The notes below the pieces were generated by a model. That model did not search any database and was not told where the DNA came from. It saw nothing but the letters and a program-made list of their open reading frames with translations. Made by a program: the position numbers and the translations under genes. DNA of 15,769 bases from a virus. Its lineage: Duplodnaviria; Heunggongvirae; Uroviricota; Caudoviricetes. Below, piece after piece: positions 1 to 13,834 of the stretch (positions are counted from its first letter, which is position 1; every line of letters starts with the position of its first letter). Location of the stretch: IMG/VR virus record IMGVR_UViG_2675903658_000005. One strand, 5' to 3'.

Positions 1-585
1 TCATGGATTTTTTTGACTGTAAGCAACAATGTAAGAACAACTCTGGCCGCTATCTGGGTTTCTCATTTGGTACTCGCTGGCAAAGGTAAGAGCAAGACAA
101 TCACCGGCTTGTAAATGATGAGTCTGATGATTGACTCGAAAATCAAGGCTGCCGTTTAACATCCACAGAGTTTGTCCGGAAAGATGCTCATTTGCAGAGG
201 CAGGGATAGTCAATTGCCCCATAGGGGGGATTTCAACTTTTATTAGTTCCGGACATGCACCCGCTGGGGACAAAGACCAGCGGGTAATGCCTGTTTCTTC
301 ATCAATCCAGTGTTGTTGCTGGTCAGCCAAAAGTACAAGTGAATTCTGTTGCATCTCAAGCTCTGCAAAAAGCTTTGATAGCGTAATATTCAGTGCATTA
401 GCTAACCGACTAAGTATTGTTGCACTGGGGCTTGAAGTGCCTCGTTCAACTTTGCTGATCATCGCCTGACTGACACCAGATCGTTGGGCAAGCTCTGTAA
501 CAGTCAAGTTTCGAGACTTTCTGAGCTTGAGTAACAAACGTGCAATATCGCTATCGACTATCTGATTTTTAGCTCTTTTATCCAT
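1..585 (-). CDS. XRE-family helix-turn-helix transcriptional regulator with C-terminal cupin-like domain
   Basis: ORF 1..603 (-). N-terminal HTH signature (LTVTELAQRSGVSQAMISKVERG, SPSATILSRLANALNI) typical of XRE/Cro-C1 family; C-terminal ~100 aa resembles the cupin sensor domain of PuuR/SutR-type regulators. Likely start is the ATG at 585 (MDKRAK...) preceded by GAGGGGAG; the ORF-track start at 603 is a GTG. Stop TGA at 3..1. Motif recognition only. Confidence 0.7.
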   Translation of the reverse strand: MDKRAKNQIVDSDIARLLLKLRKSRNLTVTELAQRSGVSQAMISKVERGTSSPSATILSRLANALNITLSKLFAELEMQQNSLVLLADQQQHWIDEETGITRWSLSPAGACPELIKVEIPPMGQLTIPASANEHLSGQTLWMLNGSLDFRVNHQTHHLQAGDCLALTFASEYQMRNPDSGQSCSYIVAYSQKNP

Positions 586-1082
586 TCTTCTCCCCTCTTT
601 CACCGACCTGATTATGCCATTACATAAATTGCGATTAAATAAATGATTTTACACGTCTCAAATGCATTTTTTCTATACGTTATAGCTTTAGAGTAAGAGC
701 TGGTAACTTCAACTTCCGTATTTGGCACATAACAGTCCTAGATACAGTGACGCACAGTTTCTTTACAAAAACATAGCTACATAGAGGTTGATCATCGTGT
801 CAAATGTACTGTAGAAATACCTACAATAATATTTTTTTGCTAATATGCGTATAAATGAATAACTATAGATAGATAAAAATATCAGCAAAAAGAAAATTTC
901 CAGCATATTAAACCAAAACAATAATACAACACTTGGCAAGTTGACCATAAAGAATGAATAAAACGAAACAATAATTCAAACTTAAACAAACTATAAACAG
1001 TTAAACAATATACAATTGACTCATGAAGTTAGATATAAAAAATACATATTCAATCATTAAAACGATTGAATGGAGACCTTTT

Positions 1083-2036
1083 ATGCGGGCGAAACTTCTG
1101 GGAATAGTCCTGACAACCCCTATTGCGATCAGCTCTTTTGCTTCTACCGAGACTTTATCGTTTACTCCTGACAACATAAATGCGGACATTAGTCTTGGAA
1201 CTCTGAGCGGAAAAACAAAAGAGCGTGTTTATCTAGCCGAAGAAGGAGGCCGAAAAGTCAGTCAACTCGACTGGAAATTCAATAATGCTGCAATTATTAA
1301 AGGTGCAATTAATTGGGATTTGATGCCCCAGATATCTATCGGGGCTGCTGGCTGGACAACTCTCGGCAGCCGAGGTGGCAATATGGTCGATCAGGACTGG
1401 ATGGATTCCAGTAACCCCGGAACCTGGACGGATGAAAGTAGACACCCTGATACACAACTCAATTATGCCAACGAATTTGATCTGAATATCAAAGGCTGGC
1501 TCCTCAACGAACCCAATTACCGCCTGGGACTCATGGCCGGATATCAGGAAAGCCGTTATAGCTTTACAGCCAGAGGTGGTTCCTATATCTACAGTTCTGA
1601 GGAGGGATTCAGAGATGATATCGGCTCCTTCCCGAATGGAGAAAGAGCAATCGGCTACAAACAACGTTTTAAAATGCCCTACATTGGCTTGACTGGAAGT
1701 TATCGTTATGAAGATTTTGAGCTAGGTGGCACATTTAAATACAGCGGCTGGGTGGAAGCATCTGATAACGATGAGCACTATGACCCAGGAAAAAGAATCA
1801 CTTATCGCAGTAAAGTCAAAGACCAAAATTACTATTCTGTTGCAGTCAATGCAGGTTATTACGTAACACCTAACGCAAGAGTTTATGTTGAAGGCGCATG
1901 GAATCGGGTTACGAATAAAAAAGGTAATACTTCACTTTATGATCACAATGATAACACTTCAGACTACAGCAAAAATGGTGCAGGCATAGAAAACTATAAC
2001 TTCATCACTACTGCTGGTCTTAAGTACACCTTTTAA
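1083..2036 (+). CDS. ompT: Outer membrane protease OmpT (omptin family)
   Basis: ORF 1023..2036; true start at internal Met 1083 (MRAKLLGIVLTTPIAISSFA signal peptide, GGAG 8 nt upstream). Near-identical over its length to E. coli OmpT as I recall it (STETLSFTPDNINADISLG ... NYNFITTAGLKYTF). Stop TAA 2034..2036. Confidence 0.93.
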   Translation: MRAKLLGIVLTTPIAISSFASTETLSFTPDNINADISLGTLSGKTKERVYLAEEGGRKVSQLDWKFNNAAIIKGAINWDLMPQISIGAAGWTTLGSRGGNMVDQDWMDSSNPGTWTDESRHPDTQLNYANEFDLNIKGWLLNEPNYRLGLMAGYQESRYSFTARGGSYIYSSEEGFRDDIGSFPNGERAIGYKQRFKMPYIGLTGSYRYEDFELGGTFKYSGWVEASDNDEHYDPGKRITYRSKVKDQNYYSVAVNAGYYVTPNARVYVEGAWNRVTNKKGNTSLYDHNDNTSDYSKNGAGIENYNFITTAGLKYTF

Positions 2037-2055
2037 CGAAGTTAACCAGATTTTC

Positions 2056-2092
2056 TCCCCGGTGGTATTGTATAACCCCGGGGAATTTGTTT
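2056..2092 (+). terminator. Putative intrinsic terminator downstream of ompT
   Basis: Inverted repeat tccccgg (2056..2062) / ccgggga (2078..2084) followed by atttgttt; sits 20 nt after the ompT stop. Loop is long (~15 nt), so strength is uncertain. Confidence 0.5.
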
Positions 2093-2222
2093 ACAGTTAC
2101 AAGTAGACAATATCCACTAATTTTGTAAGCATTTAACCTATGTCATAACGTGTAATCTCTTACCGCAACACAAGACCTCAATATATTCAAATTTTATCTT
2201 TATTCCGATATTCAGAGACACA

Positions 2223-3707
2223 ATGCGAAAAATAATTACTCATTTCAAAGTTGTTTTAACGTTACTTCTACCAGTAACCGTATCTGCCCAGCAGATACAG
2301 TGGCAATCCTGTATGGCCAGTCAATTCAACCACTGGTTTGGTGAGGAAAAACCGTCTCCTGACTTACTATGTGGTTATTTGTCTGTTCCATTAAAATATA
2401 CAGACACAGGCGGAGATGCTTCTTATGAAAAAAAATCACAAGTCAAACTAGCGTTGACAAAATTGCCGGCAAAAAGCAAGCATAAAGGAAGTATCCTGAT
2501 AATAAGTGGTGGTCCCGGGTTACCAGGCATAAATCCTTATATTAACTTTGACTGGCCAGTCACAAATCTTCGTGAGTCATGGGATATTATTGGATTTGAT
2601 CCTCGAGGCGTCGGACAGTCCACTCCGACAATAAACTGCCGGCAATCAGATACAGAGACTCAGGAAAACATAACCGAAAAGCAACAAGTATTAAATAAAA
2701 TTAATGCCTGTATCCATAATACCGGAGCCGAAGTCATTCGCCATATCGGCTCTAACGAGGCTGTATACGATATTGATCGTATTAGGCAAGCCTTGGGGGA
2801 TAAACAACTGACAGCCGTGGCGTATTCGTATGGAACTCAAATTGCAGCCTTATATGCAGAACGTTTTCCCTACAACGTAAGATCTATCGTTCTTGATGGA
2901 GTCGTCGATATCGATGACCTGGAGGACAACTTCACATGGCAACTCAAACAGGCACAGAGTTATCAGGAAACGTTTGATCGCTTTGCATCCTGGTGTGCGC
3001 GTACAAAAAGTTGCCCGCTTTCTTCAGACAGAGATAAGGCAATAACTCAGTTCCATGAGCTATTATCAAAATTACATCACAAACCTTTATTAGACAGTAA
3101 GGGAGAAAATATATCTTCAGATGAACTCATATCATTAACAACAGACCTTCTGCTATGGCGTTCATCATGGCCAACCCTTGCAACTGCCATACGCCAGTTC
3201 TCTCAGGGGATTGTCAGTAATGAAATTGAAACTGCGCTCAGTGCTCCGATAGCCTCAGAAGAGTCAAGCGATGCTTCGGGGGTAATCCTTTGTGTAGATC
3301 AGGGGGATGAGCAATTAACACCAGAAGAGCGAAAATCCCGAAAAGACGCTCTTGCGAATGCCTTCCCGGCTATTAACTTTGACAATGGACGTTCCGATTC
3401 ACCTGATTTTTGTGAATTATGGCCAATACATAGCGACCTGAACAAAACTCGCCTGAAAAATACTGTTCTGCCCTCTGGTTTACTGTTTGTAGCACACAAA
3501 TACGACCCAACAACGCCCTGGATTAATGCCCGTAAGATGGCAGAGAAATTTTCCAGCCCGTTACTAACAATAAATGGTGATGGGCATACATTAGCTCTCA
3601 CCGGAGTTAATTTATGTGTAGATAAAGCAGTTGTACATCACCTGATCACTCCACAAAAAATAGAAAATATATACTGCCCAGGAAATTCTGAAGCAGAAAT
3701 ACAATAA
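2223..3707 (+). CDS. Secreted alpha/beta-hydrolase, tripeptidyl-aminopeptidase (TAP)-like peptidase S33 family (putative)
   Basis: 494-aa ORF with N-terminal signal peptide (MRKIITHFKVVLTLLLPVTVSA-QQ). GGPG motif (ILIISGGPGLPG) and nucleophile-elbow-like motif AYSYGTQ as in TAP/prolyl-aminopeptidase-type hydrolases; several Cys suggest a periplasmic/secreted disulfide protein. Family assignment is from motifs only. Confidence 0.62.
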   Translation: MRKIITHFKVVLTLLLPVTVSAQQIQWQSCMASQFNHWFGEEKPSPDLLCGYLSVPLKYTDTGGDASYEKKSQVKLALTKLPAKSKHKGSILIISGGPGLPGINPYINFDWPVTNLRESWDIIGFDPRGVGQSTPTINCRQSDTETQENITEKQQVLNKINACIHNTGAEVIRHIGSNEAVYDIDRIRQALGDKQLTAVAYSYGTQIAALYAERFPYNVRSIVLDGVVDIDDLEDNFTWQLKQAQSYQETFDRFASWCARTKSCPLSSDRDKAITQFHELLSKLHHKPLLDSKGENISSDELISLTTDLLLWRSSWPTLATAIRQFSQGIVSNEIETALSAPIASEESSDASGVILCVDQGDEQLTPEERKSRKDALANAFPAINFDNGRSDSPDFCELWPIHSDLNKTRLKNTVLPSGLLFVAHKYDPTTPWINARKMAEKFSSPLLTINGDGHTLALTGVNLCVDKAVVHHLITPQKIENIYCPGNSEAEIQ

Positions 3708-3890: not shown

Positions 3891-4196
3891 TCAATATACA
3901 TTTTGCACCTTCGATATAGTAATGGCCGTTACTGTAATATGAGTTACAAACAGCTTCATACCCAGAGCTACTGATGTATCAACACGATTCAACAATACCC
4001 GATATTTATTCCATGCCTCCAGCAACGATCTTTCTTCCTCCGTTGCGATTTCCAGATCTACAGCATCCTGCAGTGGCGCAATATACTCACTGAATTCCTG
4101 GATGTAGAACTGTGTGGTGACGGTCTTCCAGCCATTCGGCTCCTGCTGTATCGAAGCATACCAGGCTATTTCAATATCGCTATGCTGCGGCAGCAT
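3891..4196 (-). pseudogene. Tail fiber assembly protein (Tfa) family remnant, tfaX-like, with altered C-terminus
   Basis: 101-aa ORF containing the conserved Tfa C-terminal core ([38 protein letters not shown]), but the N-terminal ~40 aa and the last ~25 aa do not match canonical Tfa (normally ~190 aa ending ...TAPDIEWP). Looks like a recombination relic, as in DLP12 tfaX. Confidence 0.6.
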
Positions 4197-4264: not shown

Positions 4265-4920
4265 ATGAAAAAAACACAGATGATGGGGCTAAAATTTACA
4301 CACCACTTACCCTAAAGCTTTATGACTGGTGGGTTTTGGGAGTATCAAATCGGCTTGCATGGGGATGTCCTACAAAGGAACACCTTCTTCCACACTTTCT
4401 GGAACATTTAGGTAACAACCATCTGGATATTGGCGTTGGAACTGGGTTTTACCTTACTCACGTACCTGAGAGCAGTCTGATATCTTTAATGGATTTGAAC
4501 GAAGCTAGCCTGAACGCGGCATCGACAAGGGCTGGGGAATCAAAAATTAAACATAAAATTAGCCATGATGTTTTTGAACCTTATCCCGCGGCGTTACATG
4601 GTCAATTTGATTCCATTTCCATGTTTTACCTTCTTCACTGCCTGCCTGGAAATATATCTACAAAAAGCTGTGTAATACGCAATGCGGCGCAGGCCTTAAC
4701 TGACGATGGAACTCTATACGGAGCCACAATTCTTGGCGATGGAGTTGTGCACAATAGCTTCGGTCAAAAACTGATGCGCATTTACAATCAGAAAGGCATC
4801 TTTTCAAACACAAAAGATTCCGAAGAAGGCTTAACACATATACTCTCAGAGCATTTCGAGAATGTTAAAACCAAGGTTCAAGGTACTGTAGTAATGTTTT
4901 CCGCTTCAGGGAAAAAATAG
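4265..4920 (+). pseudogene. ybcY: YbcY-like SAM-dependent methyltransferase, frameshifted in an A7 tract near the 5' end
   Basis: ATG 4265 with promoter and SD opens a frame that stops after 16 codons. The long frame (ORF track 4336..4920, motif I LDIGVGTGFYL) is open back to 4228 but is one base out of phase. Adding one A to the A7 run 4268..4274 restores a continuous ~219-aa protein (MKKNTDDGAKIYTPLTLKLYDWWVLGVSNRLAWGC...). ybcY is also a pseudogene in E. coli K-12 DLP12, from memory. Confidence 0.65.
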
Positions 4921-4927
4921 CATCCAA

Positions 4928-4960
4928 CCGCAGCACGTTCTTGCTTAAGACGTGCTGCGG
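4928..4960. terminator. Strong hairpin between convergent ybcY and tfa relic (possible bidirectional terminator)
   Basis: ccgcagcacg (4928..4937) pairs with cgtgctgcgg (4951..4960); inner tctt/aaga extends the stem to ~14 bp with a 4-nt loop. A T-run follows on the minus strand only after ~11 nt and no clear U-tract on plus, so terminator function is uncertain. Confidence 0.4.
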
Positions 4961-4974
4961 CATAATCCCAATGA

Positions 4975-5104
4975 TTACTCCCTGACAGGGTTCGTAGGCC
5001 ACTCAATATCAGGTGCAGTTGATGTATCAACACGGTTCAGCAACACCCTGCATGCCTTCCATGCCGCCAGCAATGATGTTTCCTCCTTCGTTGCATATAC
5101 TGCT
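4975..5104 (-). pseudogene. Tail fiber assembly (Tfa) 3'-terminal relic, tfaD-like
   Basis: Minus-strand translation gives ...[36 protein letters not shown], the canonical Tfa C-terminus, with an in-frame stop immediately upstream. Only ~40 codons remain and there is no start codon. Confidence 0.6.
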
Positions 5105-5112
5105 CACCTTTT

Positions 5113-5406
5113 TCACCCACGATTAACCAACAGCCAGACCAGCAGACACGCCACCACCGGCACAGCAAAATCCATCAGGCTTGCCACATCCCATGCACGT
5201 GGATCAAAACCGCCCCACCACGGCATGTTAATCCGCTTGCCATGCCCGAACATTTCAATCCAGCGATATTCTGCCTGGGTGTGTTCACGCGCAATGAAGA
5301 ACGTACAACCGGCTATCGCCCCGTAAGCCCAGTTTCCGGTAAAAAGACCAGCCAGTACCTGCACCGCCACGGCACAAAGCGCATGAAGTATCGACGTGAT
5401 ATCCAT
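5113..5406 (-). CDS. Small predicted two-helix membrane protein, unknown function
   Basis: 97-aa ORF; two hydrophobic segments (ILHALCAVAVQVLAGLFTGNWAYGAIAGCTFF and FAVPVVACLLVWLLVNRG) flank a Trp/Gly-rich loop (INMPWWGGFDPRAW). GGGGAG SD 3-4 nt before the ATG; start is 9 bp downstream of orf92 stop. No family recognised. Confidence 0.55.
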   Translation of the reverse strand: MDITSILHALCAVAVQVLAGLFTGNWAYGAIAGCTFFIAREHTQAEYRWIEMFGHGKRINMPWWGGFDPRAWDVASLMDFAVPVVACLLVWLLVNRG

Positions 5407-5415
5407 CTGCTCCCC

Positions 5416-5694
5416 TTAAAACCACTCCCTTAGCGGGCGCTCTGGTGTAACCACCCACTCACGGAACACGGATTCATCAAAGCCATCGTCAAGAAGACGA
5501 ATATTAACAAAGTACCCTTCGTCTCGCGTGTATTCAGGCTCCCCGTCAGCAGAAACACCTGACTCACTGAACGTAAAACCAATCTCATCAACCAGAACGG
5601 CATTCTGCAGCTCTTCGTCCTCTTCCCAGTTAAGTTTCCTGAGAAATGCCCTGAAATCTGCTTTATCACTGAAACGCAACGTGAAATCTCTCAC
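5416..5694 (-). CDS. Small acidic protein, unknown function (translationally coupled to stf)
   Basis: 92-aa ORF; 23 Asp/Glu vs 11 Arg/Lys. GTG start overlaps the stf stop as GTGA (5694..5691). Not a canonical Tfa. No family recognised. Confidence 0.5.
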   Translation of the reverse strand: MRDFTLRFSDKADFRAFLRKLNWEEDEELQNAVLVDEIGFTFSESGVSADGEPEYTRDEGYFVNIRLLDDGFDESVFREWVVTPERPLREWF

Positions 5695-7754
5695 TCCACA
5701 ACCTCCCCAAGCTGCGCATCTGTTAGCTCTTTATGCCAGAGACGAAAATTCCTCACATGCCCAAATAAATGGCGTAATCCTGCTGTAGTTTGTCCACCAA
5801 TGCGAATGGTTGCTGTACTCCGGATATATTCCCATTTGGTTTTAGTTTCGCTGCTTAACTTACCGTTACTGACTACACATGTGGACCGTTCGGACTTTAC
5901 CCGCATACCAATAAGCATTTTTTCCAGCCCGGCATTTTCATTTATTCGTCGGTCTGAACCACCTATATCACAATACGGAAAACCGTCGTACCCACCTGAT
6001 GAACCAAACCCCATTACGATCCCCGCATCTGCCTGATGCCGGTATGTGTCAAAAACACGCGGTGCTGCATTTGGCGTTTTATACCAGTTCTTATGTACCT
6101 CACAAAGAACCGTAAAAGGAAGATTATAAAGATTATTCTTAATCGGAACTGTAACCATATCGCTTGCCCGCGTTACCGGTGCCGTCCCCGTAACAATAAA
6201 AGATGATGCGCCTGTACCAGCCTCAATCTGTGGAGTGGTTACATCGAGATAATCCCCTGATGCAACCATCTGCCCTGTATCCGGAGAATACTGGACAAAA
6301 CCACCAACCGTATTTTCTGTTGTATCTGCTTTTAATGTAGCCTCAAAAAATATCCAGCCAGTTGCATCATCCTTAACAGACCTTGCTGTAACACGGCTTG
6401 TCTGACCTGTCTTGCTAATTATGCGGGTGGTAAGGTTCAGGTTTGCTGCTCCTATTGATGTCCTTACCTCCCCATCATAATGTTCAAATAAAATACGAAC
6501 GGCGATATTATCAACTTCACTTTTTACCCGACAGGATATAGTTACATGCTTTTCGTCCCCTGAAGTATCAACCCCTCCGGTACTCGAATACAGTCCGATA
6601 ATGGTATGCGCTTTACTTGTACCAACAATCGAATCCTGTACGACAAACCGGCCATAATTAAACCCGAAACTATCTGTGCCTGTTTCTGTAACGTCCAGTG
6701 AAGTTGACTTATTCCACTTCGAAGGGTCTGTACTGTTCGGGAAGAAGTTCGTTCTTTGCCCCTCAATAAGCAGGCCATCACACTCAAATCGTGGCTCATT
6801 AATTTCCGCCGTTTTCAGTTCGCCAGATTTGTTGATATATGTTGCCGTTGATGCGCGACTGAAATTAACCTGTTTATCACTGGCAACCTGAACCACATTA
6901 TCACCAATCTTCACTTTTTTATAACCCGGAGAATAGCCCGTAATCATATCCAGCGAATCATTAAAGGGTATCCACACATCCGGCAGCGGCTGTAAAACAT
7001 ATCTGTACGGCTCTGCTGTCTGGTTTGCGTATTCTCTGGCAGCATCTTCACTTGCTTTTGCTGCCGTCTGGCTTGCTGCCGATGCTTTCGCCGAGTTCGC
7101 CGCCGCTGTTTCGCTCACCTTTGCGTTGGCTTCACTGTCTTTGGCATTCGTCTCACTGGTTTTCGCTGCCGTCTGGCTGGATTTTGCGTTTTTTTCGCTG
7201 GCCTTTGTGGCTGTCTCGCTATTTTTCGCGCTGGTTTCTGATTTTTTGGCTGCTGTCGCGGAGTTTGCCGATGCAGTCTGCGAGGCCGCTGCCGCCTGTG
7301 CGCTGTTAGCTGCATTCGTTTCTGAGGTTTTCGCCGCGTTCTTCGATGATGCCGCTGCAGTTTCGGATTTCTTTGCTGCCGCTGCGCTCTGTGATGATGC
7401 TCCGGCATGACGTGCCACTTCATTCACCATCAGCTCAAAACGGCGCAGTGCCTCCGGCATGACATCATCTTCCGTCATGGCGCCGAGAAAATCATTCAGC
7501 GTACCTGGTCTGGAACCTTCATAGACGGTAATGGTCCCGGCATGTGAAGGCGGAAAATCTTCAACCAGCAGGGTGACGCTGTACTGGCCATACTCAACAT
7601 CCATGCTGTAACGCCCGGCTTCATCCGGATTTTCAGAGGCCACCGTGTTCACCACCACCGTGCTGCTGGTCCGTCTGGCCTTCAGCACAATGGTGCAGTT
7701 CTGTACTGGTTTTCCTGTGCCATCTTTAAGCACGCCAGAAATTTTTACTGTCAT
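5691..7754 (-). CDS. stf: Side tail fiber protein (Stf) with conserved lambda-type N-terminus and divergent C-terminal receptor-binding region
   Basis: 687-aa ORF. N-terminal ~110 aa match the lambda Stf N-terminus as recalled (MxVKISGVLKDGTGKPVQNCTI...YSMDVEYGQYSV...FPPSHAGTITVYE...[14 protein letters not shown]). Central Ala/Ser/Thr-rich heptad-like repeats. C-terminus ends GLRHLFGHVRNFRLWHKELTDAQLGEVVE, resembling the C-terminal signature of concanavalin A-like lectin/LamG-type domains (inference). SD GGTGGA before ATG 7754. Confidence 0.85.
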   Translation of the reverse strand: MTVKISGVLKDGTGKPVQNCTIVLKARRTSSTVVVNTVASENPDEAGRYSMDVEYGQYSVTLLVEDFPPSHAGTITVYEGSRPGTLNDFLGAMTEDDVMPEALRRFELMVNEVARHAGASSQSAAAAKKSETAAASSKNAAKTSETNAANSAQAAAASQTASANSATAAKKSETSAKNSETATKASEKNAKSSQTAAKTSETNAKDSEANAKVSETAAANSAKASAASQTAAKASEDAAREYANQTAEPYRYVLQPLPDVWIPFNDSLDMITGYSPGYKKVKIGDNVVQVASDKQVNFSRASTATYINKSGELKTAEINEPRFECDGLLIEGQRTNFFPNSTDPSKWNKSTSLDVTETGTDSFGFNYGRFVVQDSIVGTSKAHTIIGLYSSTGGVDTSGDEKHVTISCRVKSEVDNIAVRILFEHYDGEVRTSIGAANLNLTTRIISKTGQTSRVTARSVKDDATGWIFFEATLKADTTENTVGGFVQYSPDTGQMVASGDYLDVTTPQIEAGTGASSFIVTGTAPVTRASDMVTVPIKNNLYNLPFTVLCEVHKNWYKTPNAAPRVFDTYRHQADAGIVMGFGSSGGYDGFPYCDIGGSDRRINENAGLEKMLIGMRVKSERSTCVVSNGKLSSETKTKWEYIRSTATIRIGGQTTAGLRHLFGHVRNFRLWHKELTDAQLGEVVE
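7019..7412 (-). repeat. In-frame heptad-like Ala/Ser/Thr-rich tandem repeats inside stf
   Basis: Protein region ...AAKTSETNAANSA...KKSETSAKNSETATKASEKNAKSSQTAAKTSETNAKDSEANAKVSETAAANSAKASAAS...; the DNA shows ~21-bp imperfect periodicity. This low-complexity stretch generates spurious overlapping ORFs in other frames (7025..7309, 7115..7423, 7126..7410). Confidence 0.7.
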
Positions 7755-7765
7755 ACTTTTCCACC

Positions 7766-7801
7766 AATAAAAAAAGCCCGCAGCAGTGACGCCACGGGCT
7801 T
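7766..7801 (-). terminator. Intrinsic terminator downstream of lom (copy 1), 11 nt upstream of stf start
   Basis: On the minus strand: stem aagcccg / cgggctt (plus coords 7774..7780 and 7795..7801) with ~14-nt loop capable of extra pairing, followed by TTTTTTTATT (plus 7766..7775). Confidence 0.5.
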
Positions 7802-7905
7802 CAGGACAGTGTAACTTTACGTTTCCTCAAACGCAGTTCACCCCATAAGGCGGATGAACCTGCGTATCATAACAATATTTACAGAAGATAAATCGGCGTC
7901 TGTTG

Positions 7906-8505
7906 TCAGAAACGGTATCCGATACCAACAATAAATGCATCCGTTCGCCAGTCGCCACTGCCGGAGCCTTCATAAGCAATATCAATGGCCACGGATTCGG
8001 TCGGGTTAAACTGCACGCCAGCTCCCCACGCCAGAGAGGTATTGCTGTGGCGACCGTCATCACTTCCGGTCAGCACGTCGTGCATTTTCCCCTTGTTGTC
8101 AGTTACGCGGAGATAATCCCCGGAGAAAGTCGACACACGGCTGTAAGCCACACCTGCCATCGCATAAGCACTGAACCATTCATTCACGCGCACAGACGGC
8201 CCCGCCATTACGCTGAACCAGCGGTTACGCACGGAATCTTCATGCCAGCGGGTATCGCTGTAATGCGTTTTTTGCTCATCTTTGGCATTGGCATAACTGA
8301 ATGACGTCACCAGCCCCAGCGTGTCCGTAAACTCATAACGGTATTTCACGTTAATCCCGTTCAGATCATCGCTGCCAGGCATATCAGTATGGGTCTGAAG
8401 ATACCCGGCGCTTAGTGTGGACTGATGCTCTGCTGCGCTCGCTGGCGTACCAGCGGCAACCAGCCAGACTACTGCGGACAGAATAACAGCACATAATTTA
8501 CGCAT
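7906..8505 (-). CDS. lom: Lom outer membrane protein (Ail/Lom family), copy 1
   Basis: 199-aa ORF with signal peptide; strongly similar to phage lambda Lom as recalled (EHQSTLSAGYL...NGINVKYRYEFTDTLGLVTSFSYA...WHEDSVRNRWFSVMAGPSVRVNEWFSAYAMAGVAYSRVSTFSGDY...). SD AGAGG upstream of ATG 8505. Confidence 0.9.
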   Translation of the reverse strand: MRKLCAVILSAVVWLVAAGTPASAAEHQSTLSAGYLQTHTDMPGSDDLNGINVKYRYEFTDTLGLVTSFSYANAKDEQKTHYSDTRWHEDSVRNRWFSVMAGPSVRVNEWFSAYAMAGVAYSRVSTFSGDYLRVTDNKGKMHDVLTGSDDGRHSNTSLAWGAGVQFNPTESVAIDIAYEGSGSGDWRTDAFIVGIGYRF

Positions 8506-8526
8506 AATTACCTCTCGCTTTTCTGC

Positions 8527-8553
8527 AATAAAAAAGGCGCCATTTCTGGCGCC
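8527..8553 (-). terminator. Intrinsic terminator upstream of lom copy 1 (duplicate of the J terminator)
   Basis: Duplicate of 9758..9784: stem ggcgcca / tggcgcc with 4-nt loop followed on the minus strand by TTTTTTATT. Confidence 0.5.
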
Positions 8554-8572
8554 CGTATTGGGGTTATAAAAT

Positions 8573-8695
8573 TCAGCTAATCGTGATGCCTGCAGTGGCT
8601 TTCTTCATCACAACAACCAGCAAATCGCTGATACTTGCTGTGGGATACCAGCCATTTACCCACCATGCTGATACAGAAAACTCCAGCGTCATGTG
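8573..8695 (-). other. Relic of the J 3' end (last 41 codons) created by the tandem duplication
   Basis: Identical to 9804..9926, the last 123 bp of J. No start codon, out of frame with the upstream stf fragment. Confidence 0.7.
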
Positions 8696-8985
8696 ACATC
8701 TTCCGTCATGGCGCCGAGAAAATCATTCAGCGTACCTGGTCTGGAACCTTCATAGACGGTAATGGTCCCGGCATGTGAAGGCGGAAAATCTTCAACCAGC
8801 AGGGTGACGCTGTACTGGCCATACTCAACATCCATGCTGTAACGCCCGGCTTCATCCGGATTTTCAGAGGCCACCGTGTTCACCACCACCGTGCTGCTGG
8901 TCCGTCTGGCCTTCAGCACAATGGTGCAGTTCTGTACTGGTTTTCCTGTGCCATCTTTAAGCACGCCAGAAATTTTTACTGTCAT
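8689..8985 (-). pseudogene. Truncated duplicate of the stf 5' end (97 codons, then VT-stop)
   Basis: 8697..8985 is identical to 7466..7754; the ORF diverges at the duplication junction (...GAMTED-VT* vs ...GAMTEDDVMPEA in full-length stf). Confidence 0.8.
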
Positions 8986-8996
8986 ACTTTTCCACC

Positions 8997-9032
8997 AATA
9001 AAAAAAGCCCGCAGCAGTGACGCCACGGGCTT
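8997..9032 (-). terminator. Intrinsic terminator downstream of lom (copy 2)
   Basis: Identical to 7766..7801 (offset 1231). Confidence 0.5.
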
Positions 9033-9136
9033 CAGGACAGTGTAACTTTACGTTTCCTCAAACGCAGTTCACCCCATAAGGCGGATGAACCTGCGTATCA
9101 TAACAATATTTACAGAAGATAAATCGGCGTCTGTTG

Positions 9137-9736
9137 TCAGAAACGGTATCCGATACCAACAATAAATGCATCCGTTCGCCAGTCGCCACTGCCGGAGCCT
9201 TCATAAGCAATATCAATGGCCACGGATTCGGTCGGGTTAAACTGCACGCCAGCTCCCCACGCCAGAGAGGTATTGCTGTGGCGACCGTCATCACTTCCGG
9301 TCAGCACGTCGTGCATTTTCCCCTTGTTGTCAGTTACGCGGAGATAATCCCCGGAGAAAGTCGACACACGGCTGTAAGCCACACCTGCCATCGCATAAGC
9401 ACTGAACCATTCATTCACGCGCACAGACGGCCCCGCCATTACGCTGAACCAGCGGTTACGCACGGAATCTTCATGCCAGCGGGTATCGCTGTAATGCGTT
9501 TTTTGCTCATCTTTGGCATTGGCATAACTGAATGACGTCACCAGCCCCAGCGTGTCCGTAAACTCATAACGGTATTTCACGTTAATCCCGTTCAGATCAT
9601 CGCTGCCAGGCATATCAGTATGGGTCTGAAGATACCCGGCGCTTAGTGTGGACTGATGCTCTGCTGCGCTCGCTGGCGTACCAGCGGCAACCAGCCAGAC
9701 TACTGCGGACAGAATAACAGCACATAATTTACGCAT
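9137..9736 (-). CDS. lom: Lom outer membrane protein (Ail/Lom family), copy 2
   Basis: 199-aa ORF, identical in translation to 7906..8505; in the position expected from lambda gene order (directly downstream of J). Confidence 0.9.
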   Translation of the reverse strand: MRKLCAVILSAVVWLVAAGTPASAAEHQSTLSAGYLQTHTDMPGSDDLNGINVKYRYEFTDTLGLVTSFSYANAKDEQKTHYSDTRWHEDSVRNRWFSVMAGPSVRVNEWFSAYAMAGVAYSRVSTFSGDYLRVTDNKGKMHDVLTGSDDGRHSNTSLAWGAGVQFNPTESVAIDIAYEGSGSGDWRTDAFIVGIGYRF

Positions 9737-9757
9737 AATTACCTCTCGCTTTTCTGC

Positions 9758-9784
9758 AATAAAAAAGGCGCCATTTCTGGCGCC
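9758..9784 (-). terminator. Intrinsic terminator between J and lom
   Basis: Minus strand: ggcgcca-gaaa-tggcgcc (plus 9767..9784) followed by TTTTTTATT (plus 9758..9766); 20 nt after the J stop, followed by the lom SD. Confidence 0.55.
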
Positions 9785-9803
9785 CGTATTGGGGTTATAA
9801 AAT

Positions 9804-12800
9804 TCAGCTAATCGTGATGCCTGCAGTGGCTTTCTTCATCACAACAACCAGCAAATCGCTGATACTTGCTGTGGGATACCAGCCATTTACCCACCATGCT
9901 GATACAGAAAACTCCAGCGTCATGTGGCCGCGACCAGCAGGCATATCAATAACACCACTGTAAACCAGCGTATTATCCATCGCGGTACGGTTATAAATTT
10001 CAGCACCGTTTTTCTTCACTATCAGGCGGCATGACGAATAAGTATCGCTGTTCTCCCGCTCATGTCTGGCACCGCTGAAAGCCACCGCCGGAATAACAAT
10101 CTGCCGGTTAAACGGCTGATCGTCATAAACCCTGACGGTAATGGTTCCTGATGGCCAACGCTTCGGTGCACGGGAGTCACGAGGGAAAGCCTTACCCACT
10201 GTTTTAACGAGATCGCCTTCAATCTGGTTTGCAGACAGTTTCCCTCTGATGACACAGTTCTCGTTAATGGTGACATTATTGAGCGTGCCGGTATTCGCCG
10301 TGATGGCTCCACTGATATCCGCATTGCGGGCTGTCAGCCTGCCATCCGGCGTCAGGGAAAACGTCGGAGGATTGCCGGATGACGTGATGCTCACCGCAAA
10401 CAGTCGCTTCAGGAACACGTCGTTCATGAACAGCTGATTCCCCTGCGCCACAAACAGCGGCGTGGTGTTGCCATTCTCCGGGGTAATCATCGCGATACGG
10501 TCAGCCTGCAGCAGAATACTGCTCAGCGTCTGACCATCAACATCCTCAATCCCCGCACCAATCCCGGCCACATAGGGAATACCGTTTTTTGTTTTCTGCA
10601 CCTTCAGCATATACATGGCATTCAGCTCATTGCGCGTGTCTGACTGAACCCGCTGGATTTGCTGTATGGTCACGGCCTGGTCACCCAGTTTTTTATCCGT
10701 GGTCGAGGTAATTTCACTCCCTTTTTTATCCACGTACTGGCGGACCTGTGCTATCTGTCGGGCATTTTCTGACTGCCCCTGGCTGACAGTCTGTGAGATT
10801 TCACTGCTCACCCGGTCCACTTTCTGGCTCACCTGCGCGATGGCCAGTGTCTGGTCCTCATTCTTTTTCGCAACCAGCTGCGTGAGGCTGTTTTCCGCCT
10901 CCCCGATTTTCCGGGTCACTTCTGCGATATCCGTGTCCATCCGCTGACGGATGTCTTCTTCCAGTTGCGTGACCTCCGTACGCAGCGCTGAAGCATCAAT
11001 GCGCTCTTTCAGTGCCTGGCCCAGAAGCGTCTCATCTATCAGCCCCCGGAAAATTTCCAGATACCCTTCACCATCATTGCTGGGCTGCCCGCTGGCTTCC
11101 ACAAAAGCAGATTTTCCCACCAGGTTGACGCTTCGCACGTAAAACCAGAAATCCGTCCCCGGCTTAATCCGGCTCCCCTGGACAGTCCACTGACTGCCGG
11201 TCCCCAGATAACGGGCAGATTTTTCCACCTGTGCCGTGTTCGTGATGCGTTTTTCTGAGAACCAGAATTCAAACTGTACCGTCGGGTCATACACCGCAAG
11301 ACGCGGGACCGCCGTTATCTGAAAATACCCCGGCGTCAGCTCAATGGTGGCGGGTTTTGCAGGCGCGTTAATCCGGAAGGTGGTGGTCGCAGGTTCGCCC
11401 TGCTGGCCGTAGCTGTTAATGGCCCGCACCGTCAGGGTGTATTCCCCCAGCGGCAGACCACTGAAACGGTGCTCCGTGTCTGCGGTGATGGCGGTGCTCA
11501 CCAGACGGCTGTCTTCTCCGCTTCCGCTGGTCAGACGCAGACTGAAGCGCACACCCTTCACCACCCGCGGCGTGTCCCATTTCGCCTGTGCCAGATACTG
11601 ACCGTCAGCTGCACTCACCTCCACCGTCAGGTGCTGCACTGCCGGTGGGATAACGCTGTTCAGGCTGCCTGACTGCGGCTCAAAGCTGGCCCCGTTATCC
11701 ACAATGGCTTCTTTTTCCGGTACGTGCTGCACCGCCGTGATGGCGAACGTGCCGTCCGTGTTTTCCCGAATGGAGACACAGCGGAACAGGCGACGACGCA
11801 GTGACGGCAGGGAGAGTCCCCACACACCGTATGTCTCCACACCATCCGGCAGGGTGCTGACCTGTATCCGGTCAGGCGCGGGGTGTGCGGTGATGGCCAC
11901 GCTCGCCGGCTTACCGCTGCCGTTAATCAGATTAACAGTGGCCGTGCCGGTCTCCGGCAGTGTCACCTCCCGGTCCAGCGTCAGGGTACGGCTGGCGGCA
12001 TCGATGGACAGGACACGTCCGCCGGTCATGGTCCCGGCATAGTCGTTATCACAGATTTCAATGATGTCACCGGGTGTGTGACGCAGCCCCTGTGACCCGA
12101 GCGTGAAATCCACCGTCTGCGTTTCCAGCAGTTCGGTCTTTATCACCCACAGCCCGGCACGGTGGGCCTGACCGCGGCTGGTACAGCCGAACGCGTCCAT
12201 CTTCAGCAGGTTGCGTCCGTAGCGCAGTATGGCTTCCGGGTCTTCCACCAGTTCCGTGGAGGTCTGCCAGCCGTTCTGCGGGTCGGTGTAATTCACCTCC
12301 ACTGCCGTGTGCCGGTCCTTCAGGGCACTGAAGCTGTAGCGGAAACCCACGCCGTTATCATCCACCACCACATCGCTGTTGGTGTACGGCCACACCACAT
12401 CCGACGGACGGTCCTGAACGAACGTCAGCGTCTGGCCGTTCCATACCGGCATACAGCGCATCGCAGAGCAGAAATCACTGAGAACGTCCCACGCCTTACG
12501 CTGTTGTGCCAGGTACGCATTAAAGGTCATCCGCGGCTCGGTCCCCCCGAAACCATCCGGGACCGTCTGGTCGCAGTACTGCCCGATGGCATACAGCGCC
12601 CACTTGTCCACATCCGCCGCCCCCAGACGTTTTCCCATGCCGTAGCGCGGGTGAGTCAGCATGTCCCACAGACACCAGGCCGGGTTGTTGCTGTATGCCG
12701 GTTTCAGGCTGCCGTCCCAGATACCACTGTACGTGCGTTTTTCCGGGTCATAGTTTGACGGCACCTGGATGATGCGACCGCGGATATGGTAGTTCACCGT

Positions 12801-13496
12801 CATCTGCTGGCCGCCGAACTGCTCCGCATCCACCTGCAGCCCCACAATGGCCGTGTTCGGGTAGCACTGTTTCACATCGATGATTTCGGTGTATGACGAC
12901 CACAGCGTCTTATTCTGCAGCTGGTCCGTGGTGCTGTCCGCCGTCTCCCTGACCATCCGGATGTTAAAGGGCCGGGGAGGCAGATTATCCAGAATCACCG
13001 AGGCCAGGAACTGCGAGGTGGTCTTGCCGTTAATGGTGACATCCTTTTCCGTCACCCAGCGGCCATTACGCTGTAACTGAATCAGAATCCGGACAGAGGA
13101 AGGATTACGGTCGCCCCTTGACGTGGTCTGCACCAGTGACTGCACCCCGAAGGTAACCCGCAGGCGGTCAATGTTCGCGGACGTAATGGTGCGCGTCACC
13201 GGTTTTGCCTTCGTCACTTCCACGCCCAGTCCGGTTTCAGCTCCGGAGGACTCAAAGCCTTCCGGTGGTGTCTGCTCCTGCTCCCCGGCACGCCAGACCG
13301 CGGTCACACCGTGTATCACGGGATTACCGTCCGTGTCCGTCAGCGGGGTTTTGTTCACCAGGATACTCTGCAGTCCCTTCACCGGACCTTCTATCGGTCC
13401 CTCACCAATCGCATCAATCACACTCATCATCTGCGTGGATTTGAGATTATCCTTCGCCTCACGAGGCGTGTGTGCCTTACCGCCACCTTTTCCCAT
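9804..13496 (-). CDS. J: Tail tip / host specificity protein J (central tail fiber)
   Basis: 1,230-aa ORF; N-terminal ~800 aa closely track lambda J as recalled (MGKG..[16 protein letters not shown]...[32 protein letters not shown]...[14 protein letters not shown]...). Carries a coiled-coil-like insertion and a divergent last ~200 aa relative to lambda. SD AGGGGAAGG before ATG 13496. Confidence 0.93.
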
Positions 13497-13599
13497 ACAG
13501 CCTTCCCCTGAATAAATTAACCGCCACTTGCCATTCCGTACAGAAGTCGGATATCCTTCGCCCGAAAAGCATGAAACACATTTCTGCCATGCTAAAGAG

Positions 13600-13637
13600 A
13601 AACCCCGGTATCAGCAGATACCGGGGTTTTCTTTCAT
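13600..13637. terminator. GC-rich hairpin with U-rich flanks on both strands in the I-J intergenic insertion (possible bidirectional terminator)
   Basis: Perfect inverted repeat aaaccccggtatc (13600..13612), loop agca, gataccggggttt (13617..13629). Plus strand is followed by tctttc; minus strand by tctctttagc. Confidence 0.5.
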
Positions 13638-13701
13638 GCCCACCGATAATCCTGTTGGTTAAAACCGGTAATGGCATAAAAATTCTGAATATCTTCACAT
13701 T

Positions 13702-13729
13702 TTCACAAAATCCCTGTGGCACTTATAAT
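13702..13729 (+). promoter_or_regulatory. Near-consensus sigma70 promoter on the strand antisense to the tail operon
   Basis: TTCACA (13702..13707), 16-bp spacer, perfect TATAAT (13724..13729); predicted start near 13736. Confidence 0.45.
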
Positions 13730-13735
13730 TTCTCT

Positions 13736-13827
13736 GCGTTAATTTTTTTTGTCGTGACATAAGAATAATTATCTATAGTTGATCTTCGTAACGCTCCCGC
13801 AGCTCCGCAACTCTGCGGGATTTTTTT
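13736..13827 (+). ncRNA. Candidate small RNA (~90 nt) between promoter 13702..13729 and terminator 13795..13827
   Basis: No ATG and no plausible ORF in the interval; 5' U8 tract (13742..13750), AU-rich body, 3' intrinsic terminator. Purely predicted from promoter/terminator geometry; no expression evidence. Confidence 0.3.
13795..13827 (+). terminator. Rho-independent terminator (plus strand)
   Basis: Stem tcccgcag (13795..13802) / ctgcggga (13813..13820), 10-nt loop, then TTTTTTT (13821..13827). The minus strand has no U-tract after the hairpin, so it is plus-oriented. Confidence 0.6.
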
Positions 13828-13834
13828 ATTCTTT

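Follow-up and report, generated by a model that had tools for sequence, protein, structure and literature searches.

Several phages encode a tail fibre together with its own chaperone, i.e., Stf/Tfa of lambda, H/G of P2, S/U of Mu and gp37/gp38 of T4. The locus described here shares the logic of the lambda Stf/Tfa-type pairs: a small, coupled gene lies directly after the receptor-binding end of the fibre. It is carried by a DNA of 15,769 nucleotides (nt), hereafter the window, from the Caudoviricetes record IMGVR_UViG_2675903658_000005 of IMG/VR. In this window the side tail fibre gene, stf, is followed by two small open reading frames (ORFs), orf92 and orf97, the three occupying positions 5113-7754. 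The N-terminus of the fibre is of the same type as that of lambda Stf. In contrast, its distal part, i.e., the head, is a lectin-type beta domain instead of a lambda or T4-type tip, and orf92 resembles neither Tfa nor gp38 nor the S74 chaperones. The conclusion retained, with a probability of about 0.5, is that orf92 would be a fibre-dedicated assembly partner (chaperone) of this head, standing in the place of Tfa.

Closest described loci

The same three genes, in the same order and with the same junctions, are present in phage 21 (OL657228, CPT_21_22 to CPT_21_24), ev243 and PhiR49_2. Over positions 5113-6900 the DNA identity to the window is 99.4% for ev243 and 97.9% for PhiR49_2, and the C-terminal 427 amino acids (aa) of stf are 99.3% identical to those of ev243. 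The phage 21 proteins are 54% (fibre cassette), 64% (orf92) and 93% (orf97) identical to those of the window, i.e., the fibre head and orf92 of phage 21 are divergent alleles; the labels found in the record are 'hypothetical protein' and 'putative membrane protein'. The window differs from these three loci by a tandem duplication upstream and by tfa relics downstream.

In the T5-like BASEL phage IrisVonRoten, the proximal lateral tail fibre Gp22 has a homologous 427-aa head (60% identity over the full cassette) and is followed by an orf92 homologue, bas32_0023. This locus differs from the window in three respects: (i) the N-terminal anchor is of the T5 type; (ii) a distal S74 fibre, Gp24, is encoded after the small gene; (iii) there is no orf97. 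The head of Gp22 has been called 'galectin-like' from AlphaFold models (PMC11990801), and a 'lectin-like head (D69)' has been described on BASEL phage fibres with the support of low-resolution electron cryomicroscopy (PMC12143355). D69 may be of the same kind as the head of the window. The small gene that follows the Gp22-type fibre is not discussed in these two papers.

A distant relative is Rcc01080, the head-spike fibre of RcGTA, a Rhodobacter gene transfer agent (PDB 6tb9, 6tba, 6tsu, 6tui); it is homologous in sequence to stf residues 298-545. Rcc01080 is present as one subunit per spike, binds capsular polysaccharide and is beta-rich and lectin-like in its AlphaFold model, experimental resolution being limited to the first ten residues (PMC7296036, PMC10218006); in the PDB entries, residues 2-10 alone are seen. 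Unlike stf, it is a single-copy head decoration held by a 10-residue N-terminal peptide anchor, not a tail fibre. Nothing in it aligns with the terminal LamG-like domain of stf, and no orf92 homologue was found for it.

Finally, LtfA and LtfB of phages DT57C and DT571/2 represent a two-fibre architecture at the equivalent locus of T5-like phages (PMC4728585, PMC10713586). One internal module (query residues 27-80) is common to these distal fibres and to those encoded after orf92. LtfA of DT57C ends in an S74 intramolecular chaperone, not in a lectin-type cassette. The small genes are not mentioned in the papers examined on DT57C, BF23, AKFV33, BASEL, RBPseg and engineered lambda delivery particles.

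The layout, which was singled out when the window was read from its letters alone, is not unusual: it occurs in phage 21, in ev243 and in the PhiR ECOR phages, and IrisVonRoten has the related cassette.

The head cassette of the fibre

From sequence comparison, stf is a mosaic composed of a lambda-type anchor, a putative coiled-coil shaft and a lectin-type head cassette of 427 aa. The anchor also matches PDB 9e7m, 'Tail fiber protein' (residues 1-94, E 2.3e-47), and the whole protein belongs to phrog_1419, tail protein (E 0). As expected of a lambda-type Stf, the gene follows J and lom where the lambdoid tail operon ends, and homologues of L, K and I are found upstream. On the contrary, no Tfa (Caudo_TAP) match was obtained for orf92 or orf97, and the only traces of tfa are the two relics listed in Table 1. 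The shaft contains 41-nt repeats at 7033-7220 and gives weak matches to depolymerase and fibre shafts. The shaft repeats, within 7005-7440, generate three spurious overlapping ORFs (7025-7309 and 7126-7410 on the plus strand, 7115-7423 on the minus strand); they also cause an AT-skew spike of -0.54.

The first part of the head is recognized by NF048003 (GTA_spike_fiber), with 72.1 bits for a cut-off of 36, over stf residues 329-530. The match with Rcc01080 (PDB 6tb9) has an E-value of 4e-5 with the single sequence and of 7.8e-18 with a profile of eight homologues. Within this domain, residues ~340-530 are 30-65% identical between close relatives while both flanks are 100% identical. This core is thus likely to form the glycan-recognition surface. 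By its homology to Rcc01080 and by this hypervariable core, the fibre of the window would have O-antigen or capsule, i.e., a polysaccharide of the cell surface, as its first receptor and bind it reversibly.

The end of the head is of the ConA/LamG type. PF13385 (Laminin_G_3) is found in the last 160 aa of ten out of ten diverse homologues (best E 1.4e-9). The C-terminal 160 aa of the window's own fibre score under the cut-off of 27.6 bits (14.8 bits, E 0.032), and the whole stf protein gives no match to PF13385 at E up to 1. Judged by these profiles, the LamG/ConA-like assignment holds at the family level only. The other families met in the scan of the C-terminus are DUF5849 and Pentaxin, each in one member. 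The end motif VRNFRLWHKELTDAQL is common to all ten aligned fibres that precede an orf92 homologue, and the H, R, W and L at its centre are invariant. Neither an S74 intramolecular chaperone nor a Tfa domain was detected in stf or orf92 with Pfam and NCBIfam.

By tblastn, the head cassette is present in about 225 phage records, which belong to lambdoid, T1-like Drexlerviridae, T5-like, Queuovirinae, Dhillonvirus and Vequintavirus phages. The cassette is exchanged horizontally among the lateral fibres of these six groups. The homologous fibre of AKFV33, a 784-aa product, was detected by mass spectrometry of virions, and its observed mass is 95.8 kDa (PMC3326045). From this mass, the head does not seem to be cleaved off the mature AKFV33 fibre.

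The orf92 protein and its linkage to the head

The orf92 protein has an isoelectric point of 4.25, with 23 Asp plus Glu for 11 Lys plus Arg. It belongs to phrog_1361, annotated as of unknown function in PHROGs. No family match was obtained in Pfam, NCBIfam, PADLOC or the PDB sequences. [quoted passage not shown] Neither the sequence nor the fold is similar to Tfa (Caudo_TAP), gp38 or the S74 chaperones. The C-terminal tail PLREW is conserved, yet modelled with low confidence, i.e., poorly ordered.

The start of orf92 overlaps the TGA stop codon of stf (GTGA), and a GGAGG is located 8 nt upstream. This arrangement is general: the cassette ends at, or overlaps, the start of orf92 in all 88 loci inspected, i.e., the loci that contain an orf92 homologue. 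Among them, one fibre gene is split by an insertion and one fibre is very divergent. In an IMG/VR prophage (L086:187-4001) about 2.5 kb are inserted near the 3' end of stf, and the last 41 codons still abut orf92. The alignment of orf92 homologues was seeded from phage records, and the homologues beyond the near-identical sequences come from that alignment.

By tblastn, orf92 is present in 187 phage records, which are spread over the phage groups almost as the 225 records of the cassette are. The difference is partly due to divergent members: small proteins of AKFV33 and IME178 match the orf92 profile at about 1e-17, and the divergent members follow fibres with the same end motif. In lambdoids that lack a second fibre the gene is constrained, with a ratio of nonsynonymous to synonymous substitution rates (dN/dS) of 0.26 when compared with a 92%-identical allele. 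Compared with the allele of phage 21, the proportions of nonsynonymous (pN) and synonymous (pS) differences are 0.25 and 0.88, the synonymous sites being saturated. As is the case for known fibre chaperones, orf92 is thus directly downstream of the receptor-binding end, coupled to it and co-inherited with it across six phage groups.

Part of what the original prediction had deduced is borne out by these data, i.e., the coordinates of the three genes with the GTGA overlap and the 9-nt gap, the conserved lambda-type N-terminus of stf, the strong acidity of orf92, the replacement of the canonical tfa (of which a relic remains just past orf97) and the absence of any recognizable family for the two small ORFs in sequence and fold searches. 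The lectin-like signature that it had read at the end of the fibre is the property of the family and falls below threshold in the window copy.

Assembly partner or structural adaptor

Because the cassette contains no S74 chaperone and is not followed by Tfa, orf92 would be its separately encoded assembly partner. The following scheme is proposed. The orf92 protein, with its flexible PLREW tail, translationally coupled at the stop codon of stf and travelling with the head cassette, would bind conserved parts of the head and help the head to fold or assemble. It would thereby take the position and the role that Tfa holds for lambda Stf.

Three observations weigh against this proposal. Firstly, orf92 co-varies with neither half of the head: it can be 99% identical beside a head at 69%, or 43% identical beside a LamG end at 70-100%. 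This fits a generalist partner and gives no positive signal of co-evolution. Secondly, the distant homologue Rcc01080 was produced in E. coli as a fusion protein that binds cells, and no partner resembling orf92 is reported (PMC10218006). Thirdly, some lambdoids, like the virulent phages inspected, have a second fibre gene after orf92, which favours the role of an adaptor.

According to this last possibility, orf92 would be a structural adaptor of the virion, carried on the proximal head and docking a second, distal fibre, so as to give a branched lateral fibre. The window has no distal fibre gene; there, orf92 would either be left over or cap the head. A second fibre is encoded directly after the orf92 homologue in tinuso, VogelGryff, L6jm, IME178, IrisVonRoten, AKFV33 and two Escherichia prophages. 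Seven of these eight were scanned and all seven second fibres (224-715 aa) contain Peptidase_S74; the gene of AKFV33 is annotated only as tail fibre protein. The N-terminal peptide MxTxTVIPxDITxLK is present in seven of nine second fibres, and 61 phage records contain the full N-terminus of the second fibre. In addition, the GenBank label of the orf92 homologue of IrisVonRoten is 'tail fiber protein'.

On the other hand, nearly all of the 80 inspected prophage loci from viral contigs, as well as phage 21 and the window, have no distal fibre and pass directly from orf92 to orf97, while orf92 is intact (92 aa) and constrained. The PLREW tail is kept with or without a distal fibre. Moreover, the branched fibres of DT57C are reported to be built from LtfA and LtfB, and no small gene between them is mentioned (PMC4728585, PMC10713586). 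The adaptor is the main alternative, considered as somewhat unlikely, and the assembly partner is preferred.

The second S74 fibres were located at L105:3918-4958, L108:4286-4990, L013:4792-5466, L014:4789-6519 and L098:6069-7793. The peptide MxTxTVIPxDITxLK spans T1-like, T5-like, Queuovirinae and lambdoid phages; it looks like a docking peptide for branched fibres.

orf97, a separate family of predicted membrane proteins

The orf97 protein is hydrophobic (grand average of hydropathy, GRAVY, +0.57), with hydropathy peaks at both ends. Its AlphaFold2 model (pLDDT 93) has three helices (residues 4-23, 26-53 and 74-96), and transmembrane domains are predicted for its homologue in the phage 21 record. 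It is thus predicted to be an integral membrane protein, as first described, with three helices instead of the two initially counted.

The family, phrog_1443, is of unknown function in PHROGs. It is present in 75 phage records and comprises 571 clusters at 90% identity; a search of 1.84 billion proteins gave 455 clusters at 50% identity. Among the 150 matches listed (63-146 aa), none is a fusion of the orf97 domain to another domain. E41, W72 and P83 are invariant, H8, R40, Q44, A45 and E46 nearly so, and the core motif is GRExxQAEYRWI. The dN/dS ratio is 0.03-0.18. No significant match was obtained in Pfam, NCBIfam or the PDB sequences, and none in PADLOC; homology to known exclusion or defence proteins was looked for and not found. 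The fold search, a check suggested for both small ORFs, gave generic helical bundles only.

The family is cellular as well as phage-borne. In a scan of species-representative genomes, the chromosomal genes adjoin those of DNA ligase, Pirin, RNase PH and other housekeeping proteins. These copies belong to Aeromonas (L011, L109, L111-L113) or to the loci L137-L168, which are mostly from alphaproteobacteria, including sphingomonads. In phages, the homologues are located (i) after the tail fibre of a Uetakevirus; (ii) after the tail fibre assembly gene of the Halomonas myovirus phiHAP-1; (iii) after gpJ of a Comamonas prophage; (iv) after P2/HP1-type and S74 fibres; (v) after a GDSL tailspike; (vi) with a pectate-lyase tailspike on each side, on a Salmonella contig of 160 kb. 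In the virulent Kuttervirus KFSST3, an unannotated, partial copy also lies within the cluster of tailspike genes. The identification of orf97 with the small O-antigen conversion gene beside the epsilon15 tailspike was rejected, since epsilon15 has a different gene there.

Virulent phages with orf92 behind the fibre cassette and without orf97 occur among the T1-like, T5-like, Queuovirinae and Vequintavirus groups; the orf97 gene is absent from VogelGryff, tinuso, L6jm, JeffSchatz and IME178. Loci with 63% identity in orf92 have about 93% in orf97. In the comparison of the window with one locus (L034), the synonymous divergence (dS) is 0 for orf97, 0.11 for orf92 and 0.90 for the head cassette; two other loci (L017 and L030) show opposite combinations. 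Recombination breakpoints are located between orf92 and orf97. The orf97 protein is neither a fibre chaperone nor the partner of orf92, and the fibre does not need it.

These data also bear on the initial suggestion that the two small ORFs form a pair, either of chaperones or of cargo. In the second case, orf92 and orf97 would be an acidic antidote and a membrane toxin, or a superinfection-exclusion pair, unrelated to the fibre. They are indeed adjacent, one acidic and the other membrane-embedded, and at the end of an operon, a position typical of accessory genes. Joint inheritance, which is expected for a toxin and its antidote, is nevertheless not observed, each gene being widespread without the other. 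The two genes do not co-occur outside lambdoids: many of the phages with orf92 are virulent and lack orf97, while the homologues of orf97 come after unrelated tail fibres, tailspikes or tail-tip genes that have no orf92. They assort independently according to dS, neither matches a PADLOC defence model, and nothing resembling a promoter or a terminator divides them from stf. The cargo pair is thus highly improbable, and the pairing in general is abandoned. The survey proposed with it, i.e., whether both ORFs always travel with this type of stf, gave a positive answer for orf92 (at the end of the cassette in every locus with a homologue) and a negative one for orf97.

The stop codon of orf92 and the start of orf97 are separated by 9 nt, and orf97 has its own ribosome-binding site, GGGGAG. 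Between stf and the two small genes, no promoter-like or terminator-like site was found with simple consensus patterns. Since no such site separates it from stf, orf97 is probably a late gene here, co-transcribed at the end of the operon. The same consensus scan found no promoter or terminator of its own, such as would allow the expression in a lysogen that is expected of an exclusion protein. An envelope-level accessory function is a weakly held guess.

A more specific possibility is that orf97 is tied to receptor-binding proteins in general. It would be a late inner-membrane factor acting on a conserved component of the envelope or of glycan synthesis, of benefit to phages with glycan-targeting fibres or spikes, and not a random accessory gene. 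The homologues that immediately follow unrelated kinds of receptor-binding genes, across the three tail morphologies and including the virulent Kuttervirus, are in favour of it, and so are the apparent co-transcription with stf (9-nt gap, no promoter-like site) and the very strong conservation of the polar residues H8, R40, E41, Q44 and E46, which suggests a specific conserved target. However, orf97 is absent from every inspected virulent phage with the fibre cassette of the window type, many homologues are stand-alone chromosomal genes beside housekeeping genes, and the fold search retrieved only generic bundles. Furthermore, the ends of fibre modules are common insertion points of accessory genes, as known from the organisation of P2 and lambda. 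This link is consequently judged unlikely.

Recombination and duplication

At this locus, dS differs by up to 100-fold between adjacent genes. A 75-nt repeat (D2) is found in both tfa relics (3972-4046 and 5020-5094, 81% identity). This repeat and the sharp differences of dS between neighbours fit a repeated recombinational replacement of the distal module of the fibre. As judged from these sequence comparisons, the exchanged unit is the head plus orf92, and orf97 is separately exchangeable at the downstream edge. The module swap initially proposed, which included both small genes, thus stands with this reduced unit. It can be noted that the two relics bracket the plus-strand methyltransferase gene and look like layered traces of earlier replacements of the fibre module.

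Upstream, a perfect tandem duplication of 1231 bp was observed (7466-8696 and 8697-9927, zero mismatches). Each copy comprises 124 nt from the end of J, the lom gene and 289 nt from the beginning of stf. The duplication yields the second lom (9137-9736) and a truncated ORF for the N-terminus of stf (8689-8985). The closest relative, strain KE51, does not have it. This duplication could be a recent event or an assembly artefact.

Organisation of the locus

The window carries the tail end of an E. coli lambdoid prophage, and the fibre locus is the distal part of its late tail operon. On the minus strand the order is tail genes L, K and I, then J, lom, stf, orf92, orf97 and the tfa relic (Table 1). 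Beyond this relic are found the plus-strand methyltransferase gene, the second relic and then non-phage genes, including ompT. The phage 21 record annotates a terminator at the position equivalent to the hairpin between lom and stf. In 4800-8000, no minus-strand promoter-like site was found with the simple consensus patterns, nor any terminator after orf97.

Table 1. Features of the fibre locus and of its neighbourhood (positions in the window).
Feature	Position	Strand	Evidence or remark
J	9804-13496	-	
lom (two copies)	7906-8505 and 9137-9736	-	
Terminator-like hairpin between lom and stf	7773-7802	-	13-pair stem, then T-run
stf, side tail fibre, 687 aa	5691-7754	-	ORF; RefSeq 'prophage tail fiber N-terminal domain-containing protein'
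stf residues 1-131, lambda-type N-terminal attachment domain	7362-7754	-	PF08400, E 1.1e-66
stf residues ~132-250, Ala/Ser/Lys-rich repeat shaft, putative coiled coil	7005-7361	-	translation
stf residues 298-545, domain homologous to the RcGTA head spike fibre, glycan-binding type	6120-6863	-	NF048003, Rcc01080 match
stf residues ~340-530, hypervariable core	6165-6737	-	identity between close relatives (see text)
stf residues 546-687, terminal ConA-like/LamG-like domain, end motif RHLFGHVRNFRLWHKELTDAQL	5694-6119	-	PF13385 (family level)
orf92, 92 aa	5416-5694	-	ORF, GTG start
orf97, 97 aa	5113-5406	-	ORF
tfa 3' relic (tail fibre assembly pseudogene without N-terminus)	4975-5094	-	RefSeq pseudogene, equivalent position in strain KE51
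S-adenosylmethionine (SAM) methyltransferase, class I	4336-4920	+	
Second tfa 3' relic, past the methyltransferase gene	3929-4102	-	RefSeq pseudogene 'tail fiber assembly protein, missing N-terminus'

At least 80% of the stretch 4300-8600 (4.3 kb) is covered in 311 records, which come from 309 complete genomes of E. coli with near-identical copies of the three genes, and stf, orf92 and orf97 are all under purifying selection. For these two reasons, the locus is not a chance feature.

Between I and J, a gap of 338 nt (13497-13834) contains no long ORF and its GC content goes down to ~0.47; strain KE51 has a gap of equal size. A scan of the window with Rfam gave no match, this gap included. The left flank (1-3707) is non-phage. 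It comprises the gene of a helix-turn-helix regulator (1-603, minus strand), ompT (ORF 1023-2036, plus strand, likely start 1083) and the gene of a 494-aa protein (2223-3707, plus strand), the N-terminus of which is signal-peptide-like. In relatives such as KE51 the end of the prophage adjoins potB, i.e., the junction differs among strains.

Significance

As a genomic feature the locus is ordinary: its gene order and its type of fibre are already known from several isolated phages and from E. coli genomes by the hundred, and earlier descriptions of the lectin-type head exist. What is proposed here, tentatively and at a little under even odds, concerns the two small genes taken together. On the one hand, orf92 (PHROG 1361) would found a hitherto unrecognised family of fibre partners (chaperone, or chaperone and adaptor) for lectin-headed fibres, i.e., those that combine the GTA-spike and LamG domains. 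On the other hand, orf97 (PHROG 1443) would be a bacterial membrane protein, conserved and repeatedly placed by phages beside their receptor-binding genes, where it would act on a conserved target in the envelope. The latter is thus set apart from the fibre and is pointed out as a widespread, strongly conserved family of small membrane proteins that recurs beside receptor-binding genes.

Few receptor-binding modules of E. coli phages are as common as lateral fibres with a lectin-type head, and such fibres are currently being transferred to therapeutic phages and to delivery particles based on lambda. If the proposal is true, every transfer of such a head to an engineered phage or a delivery particle would require orf92 as well. 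Should orf92 be obligatory, then, by a practical rule absent from the literature examined, it would have to be moved together with the head, in the same manner as Tfa with lambda-type tips.

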